Counted from the first letter of the stretch, positions 4,006-56,074 are shown. The stretch: DNA of 64,000 nucleotides from Candidatus Uhrbacteria bacterium (GCA_016206175.1 JACQSB010000019.1:7079-71078); one strand, 5' to 3'. Notes: a model not told the origin generated them from the letters alone. Numbers and translations: made by a program.

Positions 4006-5054
4006 CGCACAAAAGAGAGGTCGGTAAACACGAAACTTCGCAGCATCATACGGAATGTGGTCAAAAATTGCGGCTGCGCGCTCGTATCCTGATTATAGAG
4101 AAAGGAATAGACGTACGGAGCTATTACCACCCCTGTCTCGTCAGTTTTTACGAGATATGCTGATAGGCCATCAGGAGCCATCACCCCCGTCCAGTTATTA
4201 AAAGAAAGGGTCTGCAGCTGCGATGAATCTGCGCTTGGGTCAACAAGTGCGATATACCAATCAATGGCACCAAGGGATTGGGGATTGTCCTGAACTTTTA
4301 CCGAAATAAATTCACCAAGCGCCGAACTAATGACAACCTCCTTATCGGATTCATTGACAGCTCGTGATGACCATGACGACGGGTAATAGAGTGAATACGA
4401 AAATGTAGGATTTGTATACGGCGTTACCCTGCCGGAGATTTCAAGACGCGCACCATCAGGCCGTAGCGGATCAAATAGGTGTTCAACTTCTTCACCATCG
4501 GTAAAACCATCTCCGTCGGTGTCCTGGATCTGGCTATTCGTATTGTAAAGGCGCTCCTCCGTATCCGTAAGCCCGTCTTTATCGCTGTCAATGGCAGGAA
4601 TTGAAGGCAATTTTACACCGGTTTCCCCTTCCGCTGGTTGCTCCGCAATAGGCTCTTCAGGGGTTGGTTCTTGCGATCCCTGATCGGAAGCTACAGCTTC
4701 TGTTGTTGTGGCTGCCGTTGTTGTTGCAGTCGTTTCTTCTGATACCGTTTGTTCTTCAGCGGGCTTTTGCGGCTCCTCGCTGACAGGCTGCTGTTGTTCA
4801 ACTGGTTTCTGCTCTATGGAAGGCTCATTCTTTTGTGGAGTGGAAAAAACAAAAAACAATACCCCTCCGGTAGCTGCAAGGAGTAGAACGATGAGCGCAA
4901 CGATAATGATAGGCTTGGAATTGGATTTCGGCGCGCCGCGGCGGAATTTCTCCGGCATAGTATACACCACCGCATCGATCGTCGGAGGAGTCTTTGCCGG
5001 CTGGCGGGATGACTCTTCTTTTGTCGCCAATTCTTCTTCTATCAAATCAAACAT
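4002..5054 (-). CDS. Membrane-anchored protein with thrombospondin type-3-like Ca-binding repeats and an unknown C-terminal domain
   Basis: 350 aa. One TM segment (PIIIVALIVLLLAATGGVLFFVF), a Pro/Glu/Thr-rich linker, DSDKDGLTDTEE and DTDGDGFTDGEE (DxDxDGxxDxxE) repeats, then about 150 aa of unknown sequence. Confidence 0.75.
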   Translation of the reverse strand: MFDLIEEELATKEESSRQPAKTPPTIDAVVYTMPEKFRRGAPKSNSKPIIIVALIVLLLAATGGVLFFVFSTPQKNEPSIEQKPVEQQQPVSEEPQKPAEEQTVSEETTATTTAATTTEAVASDQGSQEPTPEEPIAEQPAEGETGVKLPSIPAIDSDKDGLTDTEERLYNTNSQIQDTDGDGFTDGEEVEHLFDPLRPDGARLEISGRVTPYTNPTFSYSLYYPSSWSSRAVNESDKEVVISSALGEFISVKVQDNPQSLGAIDWYIALVDPSADSSQLQTLSFNNWTGVMAPDGLSAYLVKTDETGVVIAPYVYSFLYNQDTSAQPQFLTTFRMMLRSFVFTDLSFVR

Positions 5055-5071
5055 AGCAAATGGGTCTAATA

Positions 5072-5791
5072 CTATGGAAGCGTTGCGGGCAGTTTACCGC
5101 TGCCATTCGGATCGTATCCGTTGCGCACCTCTTCGCCATCCAAAAAACCGTCTCCATCGCTATCTGCATTCGACGGATTGGTTGCATATACTTGCAATTC
5201 TTCCCTATCACTTAACCCGTCACCATCCGTATCAAATAGATTTGGGTCTGTTTTATATTTCGCTTCGTCTTCATCAGAAAGACCGTCCCCATCAGTATCT
5301 GCTGCGACTGGTGTTGTATCTTGTCTTTGTTCAGCTGCCGTTCCAGATGCATCTTCACCAGTTGGAAGGGCTGCCGGATTTTCAGACAGGGGCTGTTCTT
5401 CTGTTGGTTGAACTTCTTCTTTTGTGGGTTCTTCGCTAAATTTTGGTATCTCTTGCTTTTCTGAAGGCGCAGGAAATACGTTGCCTGTCGGCGCTGCTTC
5501 CTGCTTGGGCTTAAGCAAAAAAACCAAGCTTATACCGCCGCCGATTACGAGCACTAATACAATGATTCCAATCAAGGCAAGGATCATATGCTTCTTGCCA
5601 GCATGAGGAACAACATCTTCATATTCTTCCATTGTTTGCTCTCCTCCTGACTCTGCTGCAGGCATCTCCCCCATGGGAACCGATGTATCCGGCGTTGCTG
5701 CTTCAGTCCCCTCTTGTGCAAACATATCAACAGGCTCATTGGACGCCTGCTCTTCTGACGCCATTTCTTCTGGTTTTTTTTCTTCAAACAT
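5072..5791 (-). CDS. Membrane-anchored protein with three thrombospondin type-3-like Ca-binding repeats
   Basis: 239 aa. Acidic N-terminus, one TM segment (ILALIGIIVLVLVIGGGISLVFLL), then DTDGDGLSDEDE, DTDGDGLSDREE and DSDGDGFLDGEE. Confidence 0.75.
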   Translation of the reverse strand: MFEEKKPEEMASEEQASNEPVDMFAQEGTEAATPDTSVPMGEMPAAESGGEQTMEEYEDVVPHAGKKHMILALIGIIVLVLVIGGGISLVFLLKPKQEAAPTGNVFPAPSEKQEIPKFSEEPTKEEVQPTEEQPLSENPAALPTGEDASGTAAEQRQDTTPVAADTDGDGLSDEDEAKYKTDPNLFDTDGDGLSDREELQVYATNPSNADSDGDGFLDGEEVRNGYDPNGSGKLPATLP

Positions 5792-17179: not shown

Positions 17180-17431
17180 CTACAGCTTCATGAGAGCCTT
17201 TGTCCCCGGAAATTTATCTTTCAGCTTTCCGATTTTTTTAAGATAGTCTTTTTTCTCTTCAATCATCCTGCGGCGCAATGCAGTCGTCTGCTTTTTTGCA
17301 GCGCTTTTTTTCCGGGAAAAATAACGAATCTTTTTTACTTGCAATATCCGTCCGCTCTGCTGTATCTGGCGATTGAATCTTCGCAGCAGTGCTTCAAACG
17401 ATTCTTTTGGTTTTCTTCGTACTTCTGGCAT
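17180..17431 (-). CDS. rpsU: 30S ribosomal protein S21
   Basis: MPEVRRKPKESFEALLRRFNRQIQQSGRILQVKKIRYFSRK fits the S21 pattern. Preceded by AAAGGAGGGTGACGA-ATG, one of the few strong SDs on a core gene. Confidence 0.85.
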   Translation of the reverse strand: MPEVRRKPKESFEALLRRFNRQIQQSGRILQVKKIRYFSRKKSAAKKQTTALRRRMIEEKKDYLKKIGKLKDKFPGTKALMKL

Positions 17432-19543: not shown

Positions 19544-19617
19544 TGGACAATGCAGGATTCGAACCTGCGACCTTACGGATGTGAACCGTACGCTCTAACC
19601 AACTGAGCTAATTGTCC
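19544..19617 (-). tRNA. tRNA-Val (anticodon CAC), no encoded CCA
   Basis: Reverse complement folds as a cloverleaf: GGACAAT-TA-GCTC-AGTTGGTTA-GAGC-G-TACGG-TTCACAT-CCGTA-AGGTC-GCAGG-TTCGAAT-CCTGC-ATTGTCC-A (74 nt). All stems are Watson-Crick paired. Confidence 0.93.
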
Positions 19618-28763: not shown

Positions 28764-29906
28764 TTAGATCTTTCCATAATACATCCGATCGTACGAACGG
28801 ATAATGCCTTTCATTTCTAACATGAGTAGTGTACTGGCAACGGTTTGAGTGTCAAGTTTTGCAGTTCGTATAATATCATCGAGATGAGATGGTTCTGCGC
28901 CGATTGCCGCAAGAATCAGCGCTTCCGTGTCGTCGAAAGATACTTGCTTTATCGCATCGACGTTTGTGTGGGCTGCATCGTCGATGCCATATAATAATAG
29001 TATGTCGGCTGCATCGGTGATGACGTGCGCGCCTGATTTGAGAAGCTGGTTCGTGCCAGCAGAAAAAGGGCTCGACAGCGGTCCGGGCACGGCGCACAGT
29101 TCGCGCGATGACTCCAAAGCGCAGGTAGCAGTAATCAATGATCCCGACTTCGCTGCCGCCTCCACGACAAGCGTAGCGCGAGATAGTCCAGCGATGATCC
29201 GATTCCGCAGGGGGAAATGATTTTTTTGCGCACCGGTGCGTGGAGGGAATTCAGACAGCAGGCATCCGCCGGCATCAATGATGCGTTCGGCGAGGTTGCG
29301 GTGCCTCGCAGGATAGATACTCCCGTAGTCGATGCCGGTGCCGAGCACGGCAATGGTATAACCGTCATTTTTAAGAGCGCATTCATGAGCTGCGATATCA
29401 ATCCCGTATGCAAGGCCGCTTACGATGCCAATACCTCGCCGCGCGACGGGAGCAACGATGCGATGAGTGCACTGCAATCCGTATGGCGTGGCTCTACGCG
29501 CGCCGACAACCGTAAAAAGTTCGCGACTCGATCCGGGAAGCATACCGCGATAGTAGAGAAGAAAAGGCGGATCATAGATCGTCTCTAATGCTTCTGGGTA
29601 TTCCTCGTCGTCGCGCGTGACGACCATGATTTTCTCCTTTTCAATAAATGATAAAACAGTTTCGATGTCAAATGCTTTTCTTTGAACGTCAATGATATTT
29701 GCGATCGATGGTTCCTGTAATGCATTTCGCAGCTCGGCAACTGACGCGTGCCACGCCTCTTCAAGCGATGGAAAATATGATCGAAGGCGGGCCATGCGAA
29801 TAGCGCCAAGCCCATCGATATGCGATAACGCTATTGCGTATACTTTGTCGGAGTGCATTGTATAAGAGGTATTAATTTCATCATCTTGCACAAAATTGTT
29901 CTTCAA
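28764..29906 (-). CDS. dprA: DNA processing protein DprA (Smf)
   Basis: GLAYGIDIAAHECAL and Rossmann-like core SGSLITA. The track start at 29906 is TTG; an ATG alternative lies at 29858. Confidence 0.88.
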   Translation of the reverse strand: MKNNFVQDDEINTSYTMHSDKVYAIALSHIDGLGAIRMARLRSYFPSLEEAWHASVAELRNALQEPSIANIIDVQRKAFDIETVLSFIEKEKIMVVTRDDEEYPEALETIYDPPFLLYYRGMLPGSSRELFTVVGARRATPYGLQCTHRIVAPVARRGIGIVSGLAYGIDIAAHECALKNDGYTIAVLGTGIDYGSIYPARHRNLAERIIDAGGCLLSEFPPRTGAQKNHFPLRNRIIAGLSRATLVVEAAAKSGSLITATCALESSRELCAVPGPLSSPFSAGTNQLLKSGAHVITDAADILLLYGIDDAAHTNVDAIKQVSFDDTEALILAAIGAEPSHLDDIIRTAKLDTQTVASTLLMLEMKGIIRSYDRMYYGKI

Positions 29907-30061: not shown

Positions 30062-30082
30062 TTCATAGAGGAGGACCCCGAT

Positions 30083-30637
30083 ATGTCCCGCACTGCAAAG
30101 CGGGAGAGGGAGGAACTTCAGATGACAGCACTGCGGTACATCCGACGGATGCTGCCGTATCTGCTCGTCGAGGTTTCCGAAACGGCCGAGTTTAAGGACC
30201 AGAAGGCGTATCAGAGCTTTCTGCAAATCTTGCAGGTTATCAACGAACCTGCAAAGCTCGCAGAAATCGGGTACTATCGGCATCTCGTACGGAATCATCC
30301 TGTTCCGTGCGTGACACTGAACAAGACCCGGCAACGCCTAACAGCGACATTCCGCCTTCAGCTCGAGCTTGAGCTGACAGCGAAATGCGGACTCGTAACA
30401 CGGCTGTACCCGGTACGGCTCCAGGTATCAATGGAAGGAAATTTCGCCACAAAGGAGTGGCGGCAAGCGCGCGTCAGCGTGCGGCTTCCTTCCCGTAAGG
30501 TGCCTGCGAAAACACCGGGGAAATCCCGCGAGGAATGGCCGAGGCTTCTCGAGTTTACTTGTACGCTCGTAAGGGTGTATGACGAGGAATTCCTCGTCAA
30601 AGAAGTGAACAAGGAACGCCTTGAAGAAGCGCTGTAA
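30083..30637 (+). CDS. Hypothetical protein, no recognisable motif (orphan cassette 1)
   Basis: 184-aa ORF. Canonical SD (aGAGGAGGaccccgatATG) and a strong intrinsic terminator downstream. It is a lone plus-strand gene between minus-strand dprA and pitA. Confidence 0.6.
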   Translation: MSRTAKREREELQMTALRYIRRMLPYLLVEVSETAEFKDQKAYQSFLQILQVINEPAKLAEIGYYRHLVRNHPVPCVTLNKTRQRLTATFRLQLELELTAKCGLVTRLYPVRLQVSMEGNFATKEWRQARVSVRLPSRKVPAKTPGKSREEWPRLLEFTCTLVRVYDEEFLVKEVNKERLEEAL

Positions 30638-30700: not shown

Positions 30701-30736
30701 ACGGCCGCCAATGCCTTCCGGCGGCCGTCCTTTTTT
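30701..30736 (+). terminator. Intrinsic terminator of orphan cassette 1
   Basis: GC-rich 9-bp stem acggccgcc (30701-30709) / ggcggccgt (30720-30728), then cc + TTTTTT (30731-30736). Confidence 0.75.
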
Positions 30737-31742
30737 ATATCCCAAACGAGAAAGTCCGTGCAACAAGATATGCAGCCCAGCCGATGAGAGCGGCGCACGG
30801 GATGGTAAAAATCCATGCCCATACGATATTGAGCGTGACACCCCAGCGTACTGCTGAAAGGCGTTTGATTGCTCCAGCGCCCGAGACAGCCCCGGTAATC
30901 ACATGCGTGGTGCTGACTGGAATGCCAAGATACGTTGCAAGAAAAAGGCTCCCCGCACTCGCGGTCTCTGCACAGAAACCGTCAATAGGCCGCAATTTTG
31001 TTATTTTCTGCCCCATGGTTTTTACGATTCTCCATCCTCCGCTAAGCGTGCCAAGCGCAATGGCGGTATATGAGCTCAATACAACCCATAACGGAATGTC
31101 AAATGTTTGCAGCATGCCGCCTGCGACGAGAAGGCCCGTAATGATCCCCATTGTTTTTTGAGCATCGTTGCCTCCGTGTCCAAGACTGTAGAGCGCAGCT
31201 GAAAAGAGTTGCAGACGCCGAGACCATACATTGATGGATGCAAGCGCGCGTTTATGCACCACCCATGCCGCGATAATTTCTAAAACAAAGGCAAACACAA
31301 ATCCGAGCGCTGGTGCAAGGACGATGAAAACCAAAGTTTTATACCACCCCGCAACAAGGATGACACTCCACCCGCCCTTGGCAATCGCCGCGCCGGCATA
31401 CCCGCCGATCAACGCATGAGATGAGCTTGACGGCAATCCGCGGTGCCAGGTAATGAGGTCCCACGCGATAGCGCCTATGAGCCCGCAGAGGATGACAAGG
31501 GGCGTCACGGCCGAAAGGTCAATCATGCTTTTGCCAATGGTTTTTGCAACCGCCGTACCAAAAGCAAAGAAAGCAAGAAAATTAAAACAGGCAGCCCATA
31601 TGACAGCTTGGCGCGGCGTGAGCACTTTTGTCGAAACTATCGTTGCAATCGAGTTTGCGGAATCATGCATTCCGTTCACGTAATCAAAGACGAATGCAAC
31701 CGTGATGATGAAGATAATAAAAAGGATGTCAGGAGTCGGCAT
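30735..31742 (-). CDS. pitA: Inorganic phosphate transporter, PiT (PHO4) family
   Basis: 335 aa, polytopic. GMHDSANSIAT and GHGGNDAQKTMG signature motifs. Confidence 0.92.
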   Translation of the reverse strand: MPTPDILFIIFIITVAFVFDYVNGMHDSANSIATIVSTKVLTPRQAVIWAACFNFLAFFAFGTAVAKTIGKSMIDLSAVTPLVILCGLIGAIAWDLITWHRGLPSSSSHALIGGYAGAAIAKGGWSVILVAGWYKTLVFIVLAPALGFVFAFVLEIIAAWVVHKRALASINVWSRRLQLFSAALYSLGHGGNDAQKTMGIITGLLVAGGMLQTFDIPLWVVLSSYTAIALGTLSGGWRIVKTMGQKITKLRPIDGFCAETASAGSLFLATYLGIPVSTTHVITGAVSGAGAIKRLSAVRWGVTLNIVWAWIFTIPCAALIGWAAYLVARTFSFGI

Positions 31743-31763: not shown

Positions 31764-32387
31764 TTAGCTTGTTTTGACAACAATACTTTCGATAATGTCG
31801 CTTACTTTCTGGTACTTATCCATCACGTTTTCCAAATCTTCAAGAATATCCTTCCATTGGATGAGCGTTCTGGCATCCTTTTCATTTGTAAAGAGTGTAT
31901 GGAGCCCCTTACAAAAAATTTCATCTCCCTTATCCTCAAGTTCATGGATATAGATTTTTGATTTTGTAAGAAGGTCTGTTTTTTTTAATTCTTGGAAATG
32001 GTCAAGAAGTTTTCCAAGCGCTTGCGACGCTTCGATGATAAGGTCTGCAAACTGGTCAAACTCCTCTCGTTTGCTGATAACTGCATACACCCCCACGTTG
32101 TGAATGACATTTTCTATGAGGTCAACAATGTCATCAAGTTCGTTTGTAAGGAGGTAAATATCTTCCCGATCAAACGGGGTGATAAACGTACGATTGAGAG
32201 TATCAATGATCTCATGGGCAACGGCATCGGCTTGCCGCTCTATGTCTTTTGCTTTTTTCTCGTATTCATCTCCATCAGGAAAGTGACTAGCAAAATCCTT
32301 GAGAAGCTGGGCTATTTCTTTTTGGGCGTCATTGATCTTTTTAAAGAGAGTAAAGAATCCGTTTTCTTTCGGAAGAAAGAAGCGCAT
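31764..32387 (-). CDS. DUF47 / PhoU-like Pit accessory protein
   Basis: 207 aa, all-helical. FFTLFKK...ADAVAHEIIDTLNRTFITPFDREDIYLLTNELDDIVD fits the TIGR00153/DUF47 pattern. Directly upstream of pitA, the usual pairing. Confidence 0.85.
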   Translation of the reverse strand: MRFFLPKENGFFTLFKKINDAQKEIAQLLKDFASHFPDGDEYEKKAKDIERQADAVAHEIIDTLNRTFITPFDREDIYLLTNELDDIVDLIENVIHNVGVYAVISKREEFDQFADLIIEASQALGKLLDHFQELKKTDLLTKSKIYIHELEDKGDEIFCKGLHTLFTNEKDARTLIQWKDILEDLENVMDKYQKVSDIIESIVVKTS

Positions 32388-32410
32388 AGGATGATATATG
32401 TATTAAGAAT

Positions 32411-32440
32411 ATTGTAGTAGTATGGCACATCTCAAAGCAA
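32411..32440 (-). promoter_or_regulatory. Candidate promoter of the DUF47-pitA operon
   Basis: On the minus strand: TTGCTT (32440-32435), 18-nt spacer, TACAAT (32416-32411), about 25 nt upstream of the ATG at 32387. Confidence 0.4.
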
Positions 32441-32468
32441 CAGGGAAGATGTATTGGCGGTGCAAAAC

Positions 32469-32497
32469 TTGACAGAGAGACATTTTCTTGATAGACC
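32469..32497 (+). promoter_or_regulatory. Candidate promoter of the structured sRNA
   Basis: Consensus -35 TTGACA (32469-32474), 17-nt spacer ending in TGa (extended -10), then TAGACC (32492-32497). Confidence 0.35.
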
Positions 32498-32502
32498 TGA
32501 CA

Positions 32503-32645
32503 GGAGCCAAACTCCCAAAATCCTCTTTGTCAGTGACGAAAGCGGAAATATTCCTCCTTATTCCCGCTCCTAGTCAAAAGTGAAGGGAATGCCGTTATCG
32601 GCGTCCCCTTCCGCTGGCAAAGAGTACTTTGGGAGTTTTTCTTTA
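32503..32645 (+). ncRNA. Candidate structured small RNA of about 140 nt with an anti-SD-like CCUCCUUA loop (class unknown)
   Basis: Closing helix 32509-32519 / 32628-32638 (11 bp) plus 32523-32529 / 32618-32624 (7 bp). Hairpin 32542-32567 with loop UUCCUCCU. Hairpin 32582-32611 (12 bp, 1 mismatch). T-rich tail 32636-32644. Lies in a 265-bp non-coding gap. Strand is assigned from the promoter and U-tail and remains uncertain. Confidence 0.45.
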
Positions 32646-32652
32646 CTCACGA

Positions 32653-33279
32653 TCAGCGACGGCTATTAACCATATTCTGCGCGCGTATGACACCTTGCTG
32701 GAACGCCAATTCTGTTGCATCACGTATGGCAGAAAATATAGAAGCATGTAATGTTGCAAGCTCTGTCTTTGCAAACTTTTTCAAAACAAACTCATCGGCA
32801 GGACCTTTCTTTCCGTGCGGCGGTTGAATGCCGATGCGAAAACGAACAAAATCCTTGGTGCCTAATTGATCAATGATGTTTTGTACGCCTTTATGCCCAC
32901 CCGAAGACACATTGCGATCTATTTTCAAAGAGCCAAACGGCAGATCAATATCATCGTGATAGACCCATACGCTGCCTATGGCATCCTCGCCTTCAAAATA
33001 AGTATGTAAAAAACTCTTTATCGCATTGCCAGACAGATTCATATACGTATTCGGCAGCACGACAACGATATCAATTGATGCGTCATCCCGCATCCAATAG
33101 CGGTATTCCCGCGTTTCATACAAGCGGCTCTTTTTCCTGCCGCTTTGCTCATAGTGCGCGTCCCTATTCCACTGCTCCATACAGTACTCCAGCGCGCTGG
33201 CACCCACATTATGGCGCGTTGATTCATACTCATCGCCGGGATTTCGCAATCCAATTAAAATGTAAGCACTGGTATTCAT
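32653..33279 (-). CDS. pth: Peptidyl-tRNA hydrolase
   Basis: LIGLRNPGDEYESTRHNVG (GLGNPG..Y..TRHN.G pattern) and HDDIDLPFGSLKI. Confidence 0.92.
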   Translation of the reverse strand: MNTSAYILIGLRNPGDEYESTRHNVGASALEYCMEQWNRDAHYEQSGRKKSRLYETREYRYWMRDDASIDIVVVLPNTYMNLSGNAIKSFLHTYFEGEDAIGSVWVYHDDIDLPFGSLKIDRNVSSGGHKGVQNIIDQLGTKDFVRFRIGIQPPHGKKGPADEFVLKKFAKTELATLHASIFSAIRDATELAFQQGVIRAQNMVNSRR

Positions 33280-34643
33280 TGTTTGGCAAATAATTTGCTT
33301 CGTGGCTGCGCTGTGACGATCCGTATCGGCGTCCCTGCAAATCCAAACACTTCCCGCAACCGCCGCTCAAGATAGCGGAGGTAGTTCGTATGAATGCTAA
33401 AGCGTTCCTTGACTTCGAGACGAAATGTCGGCGGGCAAGAATCGACTTGCTTCATACCATAAAGCACTGGCTTCTTTTGTCCGCGTATCCATTGCGGAGG
33501 CTGCCGTTTTTTCGCCTTTGCGAAAAAATCATTCACCAATTCTTGCGATAGAACGCGCGTACGCTGCTCTTGGACAAGCATCACGCGATCAAGGACGGTG
33601 TGGATCCGTTGCCCTGTCAAAGCAGATAAAAAAATCATCGGCGACCAATCGACAAATGAAAAATAATCACGAAACTGCTTTTCATACGCTAAGATTGATT
33701 TTGATGTCTTGTCGGGCACCTGGTCCCACTTGTTCACGATGATGATGATCCCGGAACCAGCTTCGTCAGCAATGCTCGCAAGCCGCTTCTCCTGTTTTGA
33801 AGGAGTCACCGCACTTTCCACTACCAATAGAACGATGTCAGCCTTCCTGATATTTTTAATGCTGCGCTTCACGCCTTCGCGCTCAATGTGAGATGATACC
33901 GCGCTCTTGCGCCGGATCCCAACGGTATCAATAAGCAAAAGGGGTGTCGTGCCGTACTGAATCAACGTATCATGCGGCTCACGAGTCGTATGAGCCGTTG
34001 CCGATACGATCACACGCTCCTCGCCCAGGACCCGATTCACCAACGATGATTTGCCGACGTTAGTTCTTCCGATGACTGCCACTTTGATCGGAGCGACATC
34101 TGATTCATTTTCTTGATGCTTCGGTAGCACGTTGCAGATAACGTCGAGAAGATCGCCGCTTCCCATTCCGCTCTGCGCGGATACCGCATGCGGCGCGCCG
34201 AGCCCCAATGAATACCATTCTTTTGCAAAGAGATCGCCAGGGCTTGCGAGAGAGTCGGCTTTGTTGCCAACCAAAAGAATAGGGGCTTTCGTCATCTTGG
34301 ATACGAGCTGCACGTACCGTTTATCATCCGGATGAAGGCCGGCAGACAAATCAACCAAAAAAAGCACGAGCGTGCTCCGGCGTATCGCCGAGCCCGCGTG
34401 CTGCTGGATCGCTTTATCAATCTCTGTCTGGGGTTGCAGTACCAGCCCGCCGGTATCAGCTAATAACATCTGGCAGTCGCGCCAGTGGCATACTCCGTAG
34501 TTCACATCGCGTGTCGTCCCGGGCACCGGGCTTGCAAGCGCTTTTTTTTCTCCTAACAAACGGTTGAACAAGGAAGACTTTCCCACATTCACTCTTCCGA
34601 CGAGAGAAACGAAAGGAATGCCAAGTTGTTGTTTATTTTTCAT
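33276..34643 (-). CDS. der: Ribosome-associated GTPase Der (EngA)
   Basis: Two tandem G domains (GRVNVGKSSLFN/DTGG and GRTNVGKSSLVN/DTVG, NKWD) plus a KH-like C-terminus. Confidence 0.93.
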   Translation of the reverse strand: MKNKQQLGIPFVSLVGRVNVGKSSLFNRLLGEKKALASPVPGTTRDVNYGVCHWRDCQMLLADTGGLVLQPQTEIDKAIQQHAGSAIRRSTLVLFLVDLSAGLHPDDKRYVQLVSKMTKAPILLVGNKADSLASPGDLFAKEWYSLGLGAPHAVSAQSGMGSGDLLDVICNVLPKHQENESDVAPIKVAVIGRTNVGKSSLVNRVLGEERVIVSATAHTTREPHDTLIQYGTTPLLLIDTVGIRRKSAVSSHIEREGVKRSIKNIRKADIVLLVVESAVTPSKQEKRLASIADEAGSGIIIIVNKWDQVPDKTSKSILAYEKQFRDYFSFVDWSPMIFLSALTGQRIHTVLDRVMLVQEQRTRVLSQELVNDFFAKAKKRQPPQWIRGQKKPVLYGMKQVDSCPPTFRLEVKERFSIHTNYLRYLERRLREVFGFAGTPIRIVTAQPRSKLFAKQ

Positions 34644-55102: not shown

Positions 55103-55198
55103 AGTGCCTAAAAGTATACCGACCGCATTGCCCTTTACGCAAGATGTTGCCTGCGGTATCTTTATCATTATACAAATATCGTGCAGAGGAGGTAACAA

Positions 55199-55387
55199 AT
55201 GAGCACGGTGCTCTGGGCTGTCGTGTGGGCAGCAACCTGTTATTTTTCTTTTCAATGTGGCATCGCTGTAGCCTGCCAAGCATTGGCAAAGGTTTCAAAG
55301 ACGCCAATCAAGATCCTTTTCCCTGTACGTATTCTGTTCGTTCTTTTTTGTTTTATTGGAGCAATCATACTGCTAAAAGTTCTCTAG
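55199..55387 (+). CDS. Small 2-TM membrane protein (orphan cassette 2, gene 1)
   Basis: 62 aa. SD gcaGAGGAGGtaacaaATG. Two hydrophobic helices (VLWAVVWAATCYFSFQCGIAVAC and ILFVLFCFIGAIILL). Confidence 0.55.
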   Translation: MSTVLWAVVWAATCYFSFQCGIAVACQALAKVSKTPIKILFPVRILFVLFCFIGAIILLKVL

Positions 55388-55411
55388 GATCATGTGAAAG
55401 GAGGCTCGCTC

Positions 55412-56074
55412 GTGCCAACCGGAGAAATGACGGATCCTGTATCCGTCGAAAAACGGCTCGCGGAAGGGCGCGAGCTGACCAAGCCGTTCGCTCCCCCTCC
55501 GCCACCCCGGCCGCCGATTACAAACAAGCTTTCCGGACCTGAAGAAGGGCCGGATAAGCGCCGGATGAGGTATCTCGTCCGACGGGCGCTGTTCGCTTTC
55601 GAGGAAGCCAATGGCCTTTGTCCTACGTTGCAAAATCTCCTCCCGGATTTTGCAAAGACGTGTCGCCTAGTCAACCTTCCCAACGTTCACGAGAGCATCA
55701 TTGTGGCACTTCGCGACAAGCTCGCTGAACTTCACGACCAAGACGCTCCACTGGCAGATATTCCTGAAGATGACAGCGAGCAGCTTGCCATGCAGTATCT
55801 TGGCGAGATCCCGGGGCCTTCTTCCGTAAGTAAAGAAGCGGCTCTTCTGTCCGCCGGAGACATCGGATCGCTTGCGCGGCGTCTTGATCTGGTGTCTGGG
55901 AGGAATGATTACGCGGAAACGATCCTGAAGACCCTGCAAGGATCGGCGTTCCCGCACCAAGACACGGTCGGGGAAATCCCTGCCACGAACCCTGATCGCA
56001 ACGCCGGCGGACTCGACTGGCTTACCAAAGCGCTTCGCACCCTCTTCGGTGGAAGAAAGCAGCGAGAAGCTTAA
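55412..56074 (+). CDS. Hypothetical protein with a proline-rich N-terminus (orphan cassette 2, gene 2)
   Basis: ORF open from 55394. I prefer GTG at 55412, preceded by AAAGGAGG with a 7-nt spacer; ATG at 55427 is the alternative. Contains PFAPPPPPRPP. No recognisable domain. Confidence 0.6.
   Translation: MPTGEMTDPVSVEKRLAEGRELTKPFAPPPPPRPPITNKLSGPEEGPDKRRMRYLVRRALFAFEEANGLCPTLQNLLPDFAKTCRLVNLPNVHESIIVALRDKLAELHDQDAPLADIPEDDSEQLAMQYLGEIPGPSSVSKEAALLSAGDIGSLARRLDLVSGRNDYAETILKTLQGSAFPHQDTVGEIPATNPDRNAGGLDWLTKALRTLFGGRKQREA

Follow-up and report, generated by a model that had tools for sequence, protein, structure and literature searches.

The window analysed here is a 64-kb stretch of DNA from Candidatus Uhrbacteria bacterium, a member of the CPR/Patescibacteria, and all positions given below without the name of a related locus refer to it. 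Uhrbacteria are uncultured groundwater bacteria. The genes surrounding the element under study all lie on the minus strand, namely pitA (30735-31742), a gene of the DUF47/PhoU_div type (31764-32387), pth, encoding peptidyl-tRNA hydrolase (32653-33279), and der (33276-34643). Inside the 265-nt gap that extends from pth to DUF47 sits a candidate sRNA gene of about 140 nt on the plus strand (32504-32647). It is convergent with pth, whose stop codon abuts the 3' end of the sRNA. Eleven distinct sequences of the element were compared, and all of them are convergent with the 3' end of pth.

Promoter, terminator and extent of the candidate gene

The candidate gene is preceded by the -35 hexamer TTGACA (32469-32474, plus strand), which is invariant in 11/11 copies (alignment A1, columns T5-A10), and, across a 17-nt spacer ending in TGa, by the extended -10 element TGaTAGACC (32489-32497), in which the hexamer itself, TAGACC, occupies positions 32492-32497. 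Within the extended -10 the TG, the TA and the A at the fourth position are invariant columns, and the promoter consensus TTGACA-17-TGnTAnAnn is found in every copy. The -10 hexamer is a perfect TATAAT in L017, L019 and L027, TATACT in L016, L020 and L028, TATATG in L022, TAGAGA in L011 and L013, and TAGACC in the window and L008. Note that the usually critical final T is missing in the window and its three closest relatives (TAGACC/TAGAGA), and because of this deviation a simple promoter scan of the window left the plus-strand promoter unlisted. The predicted promoter, which the original prediction had read as TTGACA-17-(TGa)TAGACC, is nevertheless validated by its conservation in all 11 copies. 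For the minus-strand promoter that had been proposed close to DUF47, TTGCTT-18-TACAAT, the comparison of 32408-32440 (minus strand) with L008 4845-4870 gave a mixed result, as both hexamers are present in the window, but L008 lacks TACAAT. An alternative extended -10 for DUF47-pitA is offered by a conserved TGnCATACT in the same region (about 32416-32424, minus strand).

At the other end of the gene, the U-rich tail UUUUUCUUU... (32636-32647, plus strand) follows directly 3' of the closing helix P1 in the manner of an intrinsic terminator, and 5-8 U directly after P1 are present in 11/11 copies, on the sRNA strand only. The covariance model of the element, R1, matches 32500-32647 on the plus strand with 148.8 bits, and the predicted transcript (32504-32647) would start about 7 nt past the -10 and end within the U-tract. 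Comparison of the homologs yielded no conserved ORF on either strand of the element. As judged from these sequence signals, the sRNA gene is predicted to be an independent, non-coding transcription unit with its own promoter and terminator.

The element is unique within the 64-kb window, where R1 matches it once. A repeat, MITE or mobile palindrome was rejected for lack of dispersed copies, as the window and each related locus have a single one, always at the same syntenic site. A 14-nt identity, ATAGACCTGACAGG with the palindromic core CCTGNCAGG, links 32491-32504 (plus strand), where it overlaps the -10/start region of the sRNA gene, to positions 244-262 of L001, a 75%-identical DUF47 locus and in both the match lies upstream of DUF47, but in opposite orientation. 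Since this match is lost in L008, the closest relative, it is treated as probably a product of chance.

Fold, strand and exposed loop of the RNA

The predicted fold is a three-way junction formed by the closing helix P1, a P2 arm that carries hairpin A, and P3, which is hairpin B; the same junction is obtained from each homolog folded singly. For the plus strand of 32495-32652 the minimum free energy is -68 kcal/mol, compared to -36 +/- 3.6 kcal/mol for dinucleotide shuffles (z = -8.8), and 0/200 shuffles are as stable as the native sequence. The two arms of P1 (32509-32534 and 32613-32638) form 25 pairs in the consensus fold, with 98% of the cells paired and compensatory changes in 13 pairs, and a repeat finder likewise returned 25-nt arms (32509-32533 and 32614-32638) that are 88% complementary. 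Its inner 12 bp are nearly invariant among the homologs. The P2 arm (32535-32575) consists of a nearly invariant 3-bp base, GAC/GUC, an internal loop, GAA / CCUA, and the 10-bp hairpin A (32541-32568), where 7/10 pairs show compensatory changes. It is followed by the junction strand J2/3, AAAAGU (32576-32581), which is largely conserved and unpaired (alignment A2, columns 79-84), the three junction strands of the consensus measuring 0, 6 and 1 nt. Hairpin B (32582-32611), with the loop UUAU and apical CG/CG pairs, is again supported by covariation: its basal pair varies between U-A, G-C, A-U and C-G, and its apical part reads CGUUAUCG in 8/11 copies, CGUAAUCG in L011 and CGGACUCG in L020 and L028. 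The original prediction had described a closing helix of 18 bp, two hairpins and a U-rich tail. The hairpins and the tail are found as described, at 32541-32568, 32582-32611 and 32636-32647, and the helix is borne out by covariation, but with 25 pairs it is longer than proposed. By eye, neither a hammerhead core (CUGANGA/GAAA order around the junction) nor a K-turn (GA/AG beside a 3-nt bulge) fits the structure.

Covariation was computed on alignment A2, which comprises 11 sequences and 47 pairs, or 515 cells. Standard pairs occupy 94% of these cells, and compensatory double changes are seen in 24 of the 47 pairs (71 cells), with all five helices adding to the support. The resulting score of 0.48 compares to 0.23 +/- 0.02 in shuffles, 0/500 of which reach the observed value, and when the 3' partners are slid by 1-3 columns, only 38-46% of the cells still pair and the score falls to 0.09-0.17. 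Conservation and covariation among relatives are therefore strong. The near-invariance of the junction strands and of the inner part of P1 suggests that a protein partner or a defined three-dimensional fold may be involved.

A lone sequence cannot decide which strand is transcribed, since the minus strand of the window copy folds about equally well, at -72.2 kcal/mol (z = -6.9) against -68 kcal/mol for the plus strand. In the RNAalifold consensus the plus strand reaches -60.4 kcal/mol, the reverse complements only -35.9 kcal/mol, and the consensus structure contains 47 G-U cells as opposed to 17 A.C cells, the kind that turn into G-U when the complementary strand is read. Read in the sense of pth, the structure has an A-tract before it and no U-tract after it. 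Transcription of the sRNA from the plus strand is supported by these comparisons, because promoter, U-tract, consensus energy and G-U cells all favour it, and the element would hence be more than a 3' UTR of pth on the minus strand.

The loop of hairpin A, UUCCUCCU (32551-32558, plus strand), reads CCUCCUUA together with the bases that follow and resembles the anti-Shine-Dalgarno (anti-SD) segment of 16S rRNA. The core of this segment, CCUCCU, is the sequence by which ribosomes recognise mRNAs. The loop core UCCUCCU is identical in 11/11 copies, within a loop consensus of A/C-A/U-U/C-UCCUCCU-U/C-A/G, and its mean probability of being unpaired is 0.99-1.00 in every homolog folded singly. The RNA accordingly presents a conserved, predicted single-stranded C/U-rich seed complementary to GGAGG. 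With promoter, junction, loop and U-tract all kept in the 11 homologs, the central claim of the original prediction, a structured plus-strand sRNA that displays an anti-SD motif in a hairpin loop, holds. A second CUCCU that had been pointed out in the linker (32567-32571) is present in the window but not conserved, the corresponding positions (A2 columns 72-76) reading CUUCU, CUGUU, CUACU, CUCUU or CGUAU elsewhere.

Gene neighbourhood, occurrence and relation to known RNAs

In every pth relative that was fetched the element is located directly after pth, with pth identities of 86, 69, 65, 52, 49, 47 and 42%, and two further loci from a pattern scan of metagenomes join the 11-sequence set. On its far side the element is flanked by DUF47 in the window and L008, by a 184-aa orphan gene in L011 and L013, by an MFS gene in L017, and by dprA in L016, L019, L020, L022 and L028; 9/11 homologs do not adjoin DUF47. 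The closest DUF47-pitA operons (71-75% amino acid identity) have other upstream neighbours, and in the 105-130-nt gaps upstream of them the sRNA element is absent and an ordinary terminator hairpin is found. These operons lie near methyltransferase, PBP or ammonium transporter genes, in unrelated contexts. As the far-side gene varies while pth is constant, the element belongs with the 3' end of pth and not with DUF47-pitA. The original prediction had described the sRNA as divergent from the DUF47-pitA promoter, and this pairing does not extend beyond the lineage of the window and L008. In that lineage, DUF47-pitA seems to have been inserted between the sRNA and either the 184-aa gene or dprA (28767-29858 in the window), and the putative ancestral order is der-pth> <RNA (<184-aa gene) dprA>.

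The distance between the two convergent genes differs among lineages. In L011 (4640-4678) and L013 (4622-4660) pth is 11-17 codons longer, and its 3' end is encoded antisense of the sRNA terminator and the 3' arm of P1. As pth runs antisense into the sRNA here, one and the same DNA encodes both a protein C-terminus and an RNA helix. Overlap with pth is therefore not obligatory in view of L022, where pth and the RNA are about 80 nt apart, probably with a terminator for pth in between.

R1 recovered exactly one copy from each locus, with scores of 110-155 bits, and gave no other match in 162 kb. A strict-core pattern, too strict to reach variants of the L016-L022 type, produced a single match in 185,579 species genomes, in the L013 genome, a MAG of Uhrbacteria. 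The metagenome pattern scan returned three true loci, L027, L028 and L029, while L024-L026 were rejected as chance matches by eye and by R1, and a pattern scan of viral contigs gave 0 matches. So far, the element has been seen only in Uhrbacteria-type contigs.

A search of the whole window against Rfam 15 (4227 models, among them hammerhead, riboswitch, SRP, RsaE and alpha-r14 models) at gathering thresholds detected only a tRNA at 19544-19617, and at E <= 10 the region 32300-32760 produced only a chance snoRNA match outside the element, with 17 bits against a threshold of 60; a known class that would explain the fold was thus not found. 6S RNA forms a rod-like helix whose large central bubble imitates an open promoter, and it was rejected for the three-way junction found here and for the lack of a match to RF00013 at E <= 10. 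The other common three-way-junction RNA is 5S rRNA, which has about 120 nt and the loop E and loop C motifs; it was rejected as well, as RF00001 gave no match at E <= 10 and P1 has 25 bp in the present case.

In its design the RNA is of a known kind, with an anti-SD seed in a loop. RsaE/RoxS, the hairpins of S. aureus RNAIII, LhrC and the streptococcal csRNAs are Hfq-independent and pair with SD sequences through UCCC or CCUCC loops. The folds, motifs and lineage of these Gram-positive sRNAs differ from those of the Uhrbacteria RNA, and none of them was matched in the Rfam scans. Closer analogues are the alpha-r14/NfeR1 sRNAs, with AbcR1/2, of alpha-rhizobia, which share with the present RNA their own promoter and terminator, variable stems and a conserved anti-SD motif exposed in loops (PMC10746234). 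In alpha-r14/NfeR1 the ultraconserved motif CCUCCUCCC is found in hairpin loops and mRNAs are silenced at the ribosome-binding site (PMC10746234). However, alpha-r14 has three tandem hairpins, each with CCUCCUCCC, whereas the Uhrbacteria RNA has one anti-SD loop in a three-way junction with a 25-bp terminal helix. The two are unrelated in sequence and by Rfam, and the Uhrbacteria RNA, whose targets are predicted only, resides in a CPR bacterium in which few genes are SD-led. Membership in alpha-r14/NfeR1 was consequently rejected on the single loop, the different fold, the CPR host and the lack of an Rfam match. A literature search did not find a described regulatory RNA of this kind in CPR/Patescibacteria. 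That the sRNA represents a new RNA family, absent from Rfam 15, is well supported by the comparative sequence data.

Candidate targets and possible function

The screen for targets covered the 64 kb of the window. A ranking of duplexes over all window ORFs with automatically assigned starts was too noisy and was replaced by a check for well-placed GGAGG, situated 6-8 nt before the true start, which is found at about 4 of about 53 long ORFs. This agrees with the earlier statement that strong GGAGG sequences are rare and concentrated on rpsU and orphan genes. The SD-led starts are those of rpsU (17180-17431, minus strand; AGAAAGGAGGgtgacgaATG, with the extended SD AGAAAGGAGG), of the 184-aa orphan ORF at 30083, and of the ORFs at 55199 and 55412, the latter two located within 55187-56074 (plus strand). 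In the window and eight related loci, an SD is absent from the starts of der, pth, DUF47, pitA, dprA, topA and the epimerase gene. For these four SD-led starts the predicted duplexes with the loop comprise 7-8 bp and -11 to -13.5 kcal/mol, which amounts to generic SD complementarity, and for non-SD starts the predicted values are about 0 and at most -5 kcal/mol. A genome with few SDs and a strongly SD-led rpsU resembles the pattern in Bacteroidia, where rpsU stands alone in being strongly SD-led. Among the dprA genes some appear to be leaderless, and in L017 (5255-5281) and L019 (1040-1063) a TATTAT box precedes the start of dprA by 6-7 nt and an SD is absent, an arrangement that suggests leaderless dprA mRNAs in these two loci. 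Where the orphan gene is missing, the dprA promoter is back-to-back with that of the sRNA (e.g. L016 3340-3376, and L019).

The 184-aa orphan gene of the window is located at 30083-30637 (plus strand), and the stretch that holds it together with its SD is 30069-30637. Its relatives are found on the minus strand of L011 (4934-5501), L013 (about 4934-5491) and L017 (4618-5175), the L017 copy being related by pairwise comparison with 32% identity (E 4e-21). In 4/11 loci the gene lies just upstream of the sRNA and shares its orientation, and in 3 of these 4 it has the strong SD AGAGGAGGA. The protein has only 3 database homologs, no Pfam family was found for it, and its AlphaFold model is poor (pLDDT 45).

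We consider it most probable, with a probability of roughly one half, that the element is a stand-alone sRNA gene whose loop occludes the SDs of a small SD-led regulon. A sigma-70-type promoter would drive a transcript of about 140 nt, the 5' and 3' ends of which form the 25-bp helix ahead of the U-tract, and one arm of the three-way junction would display the invariant single-stranded UCCUCCU, the anti-SD core. The loop could then base-pair with the SD regions of a few SD-led mRNAs, which in the window would be those of rpsU, encoding bS21, and of the three orphan genes, and the pairing would block access of the ribosome as with known sRNAs that carry an anti-SD seed. Both the targets and repression as the outcome we infer, in line with the original idea that the RNA sequesters SDs, which is consistent with the SD-poor gene starts. 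Occlusion is favoured because the window is poor in SDs, with a well-placed GGAGG only at rpsU and the three orphan genes, and because the closest analogues, alpha-r14/NfeR1 and AbcR, occlude ribosome-binding sites. Three observations speak against it: a pairing of 7-8 bp with a generic SD affords little target specificity, the extended SD of rpsU, AGAAAGGAGG, fits the canonical 16S tail better than the loop, and a simple carrier of an antisense seed has no need for near-invariant junction strands and a near-invariant inner P1.

This conservation is what would be expected of a scaffold for protein binding, and it raises the question whether the RNA acts as a mimic or decoy of the 16S 3' tail, with the CCUCCUU of its loop titrating bS21 or another platform or maturation factor and so tuning the number of ribosomes able to use SDs. 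Such a decoy would account for an invariant loop that equals the anti-SD core, and the SD-poor window, with rpsU among the very few strongly SD-led genes, recalls Bacteroidia, whose bS21 keeps the anti-SD sequestered and whose rpsU is under autoregulation via its SD (PMC9976891, PMC13000453). In those bacteria, too, few SDs are used while rpsU keeps a strong or extended one, but their system is intrinsic to the ribosome, residing in the bS21/bS18/bS6 pocket, and works without an sRNA. A precedent for a non-coding anti-SD mimic is OLE RNA, whose P6 contains an exact CCUCCU copy of the 16S anti-SD that is functionally recognised by bS21 (PMC12054373). OLE RNA is, however, a membrane-associated RNA of about 600 nt from Bacillota in which the mimic is paired with an SD-like strand, whereas the Uhrbacteria RNA, with 140 nt and no homology to it, presents the motif in a free, single-stranded loop. 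Nor is the sRNA similar to helix 45 or to any other part of the 16S 3' end. In view of the junction conservation, the OLE precedent and the Bacteroidia-like SD pattern we regard the decoy as a serious alternative, albeit an unlikely one.

Highly conserved unpaired junction nucleotides would be equally compatible with a housekeeping or RNP RNA of unknown class, which would be expressed constitutively and in which the CU-rich loop would be a docking site for protein or RNA unrelated to SDs. The consensus or near-consensus promoter in most copies and the single copy per locus would fit such a role. On the other hand, 6S, SRP, 5S, RNase P and Y RNA gave no Rfam match even at E <= 10, and the distribution is narrow, the strict-core scan of 185,579 species genomes having led to one Uhrbacteria MAG, so that we hold this explanation to be improbable as well.

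The constant position next to pth could also reflect a function as a cis-antisense or convergent-transcription partner of that gene, acting on 3'-end formation or stability of the der-pth mRNA by way of an RNase III duplex or of colliding polymerases, or being itself sponged by that mRNA. The RNA and the pth 3' UTR are fully complementary, and the complementarity reaches into the last pth codons in some lineages such as L011 and L013, where the pth ORF enters the antisense of the P1 3' arm; the two genes are convergent at 11/11 loci in spite of the rearranged other flank, and a terminator scan detected no intrinsic terminator for pth in the pth sense. Inheritance alone can give such synteny, though, the gap of about 80 nt in L022 sets the two genes apart, and a purely antisense role would leave both the covarying three-way junction and the invariant exposed loop unexplained. 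We therefore assign this role a low probability.

Still less probable, in our estimate, is that the RNA serves as a trans-acting copy of the anti-SD that governs a tiny SD-dependent regulon, rpsU/bS21 included, in a bacterium with otherwise SD-independent initiation. It might do so by competing with, or substituting for, the 16S 3' tail on SD-led mRNAs, or else by acting as a decoy for bS21, and either route would, if true, constitute an RNA-based switch of ribosome specialisation. Only 48% of the 16S genes of Parcubacteria were found to carry an anti-SD motif (PMC9297842), and because of this figure the extreme version, an anti-SD supplied from outside the 16S rRNA, retains a low probability.

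Finally, an element of the minus strand, either a 3' UTR or terminator of pth or a leader or riboswitch of DUF47-pitA with the SD-like loop AAGGAGGAA, is very improbable, since its slightly better folding in the window copy and the minus-strand orientation of all flanking genes are outweighed by the far weaker consensus fold, the G-U cells, the missing U-tract in the pth sense, the lack of the element at the closest DUF47-pitA operons and the location of most copies away from DUF47. The terminator scan was empty for a pth terminator, and association with the operon across genomes fails for a leader. Note that AAGGAGGAA was also discarded as the SD of a small minus-strand ORF, because most copies have an AUG or GUG only 1-2 nt past GGAGG and the window has none there, the ORF is unconserved and the strand evidence opposes it, and as a GGA hairpin of the CsrA type, again on strand evidence.

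CPR/Patescibacteria have tiny genomes with few recognisable regulators. As the family described here has the full set of gene signals, with promoter, terminator, covariation and an invariant loop combined, it offers a concrete entry point into post-transcriptional control in these bacteria, and it merits submission to an RNA database. Moreover, since its invariant element is the anti-SD core and its host uses SDs at a handful of genes that include rpsU, the RNA makes the role of the SD in SD-poor bacteria directly testable.
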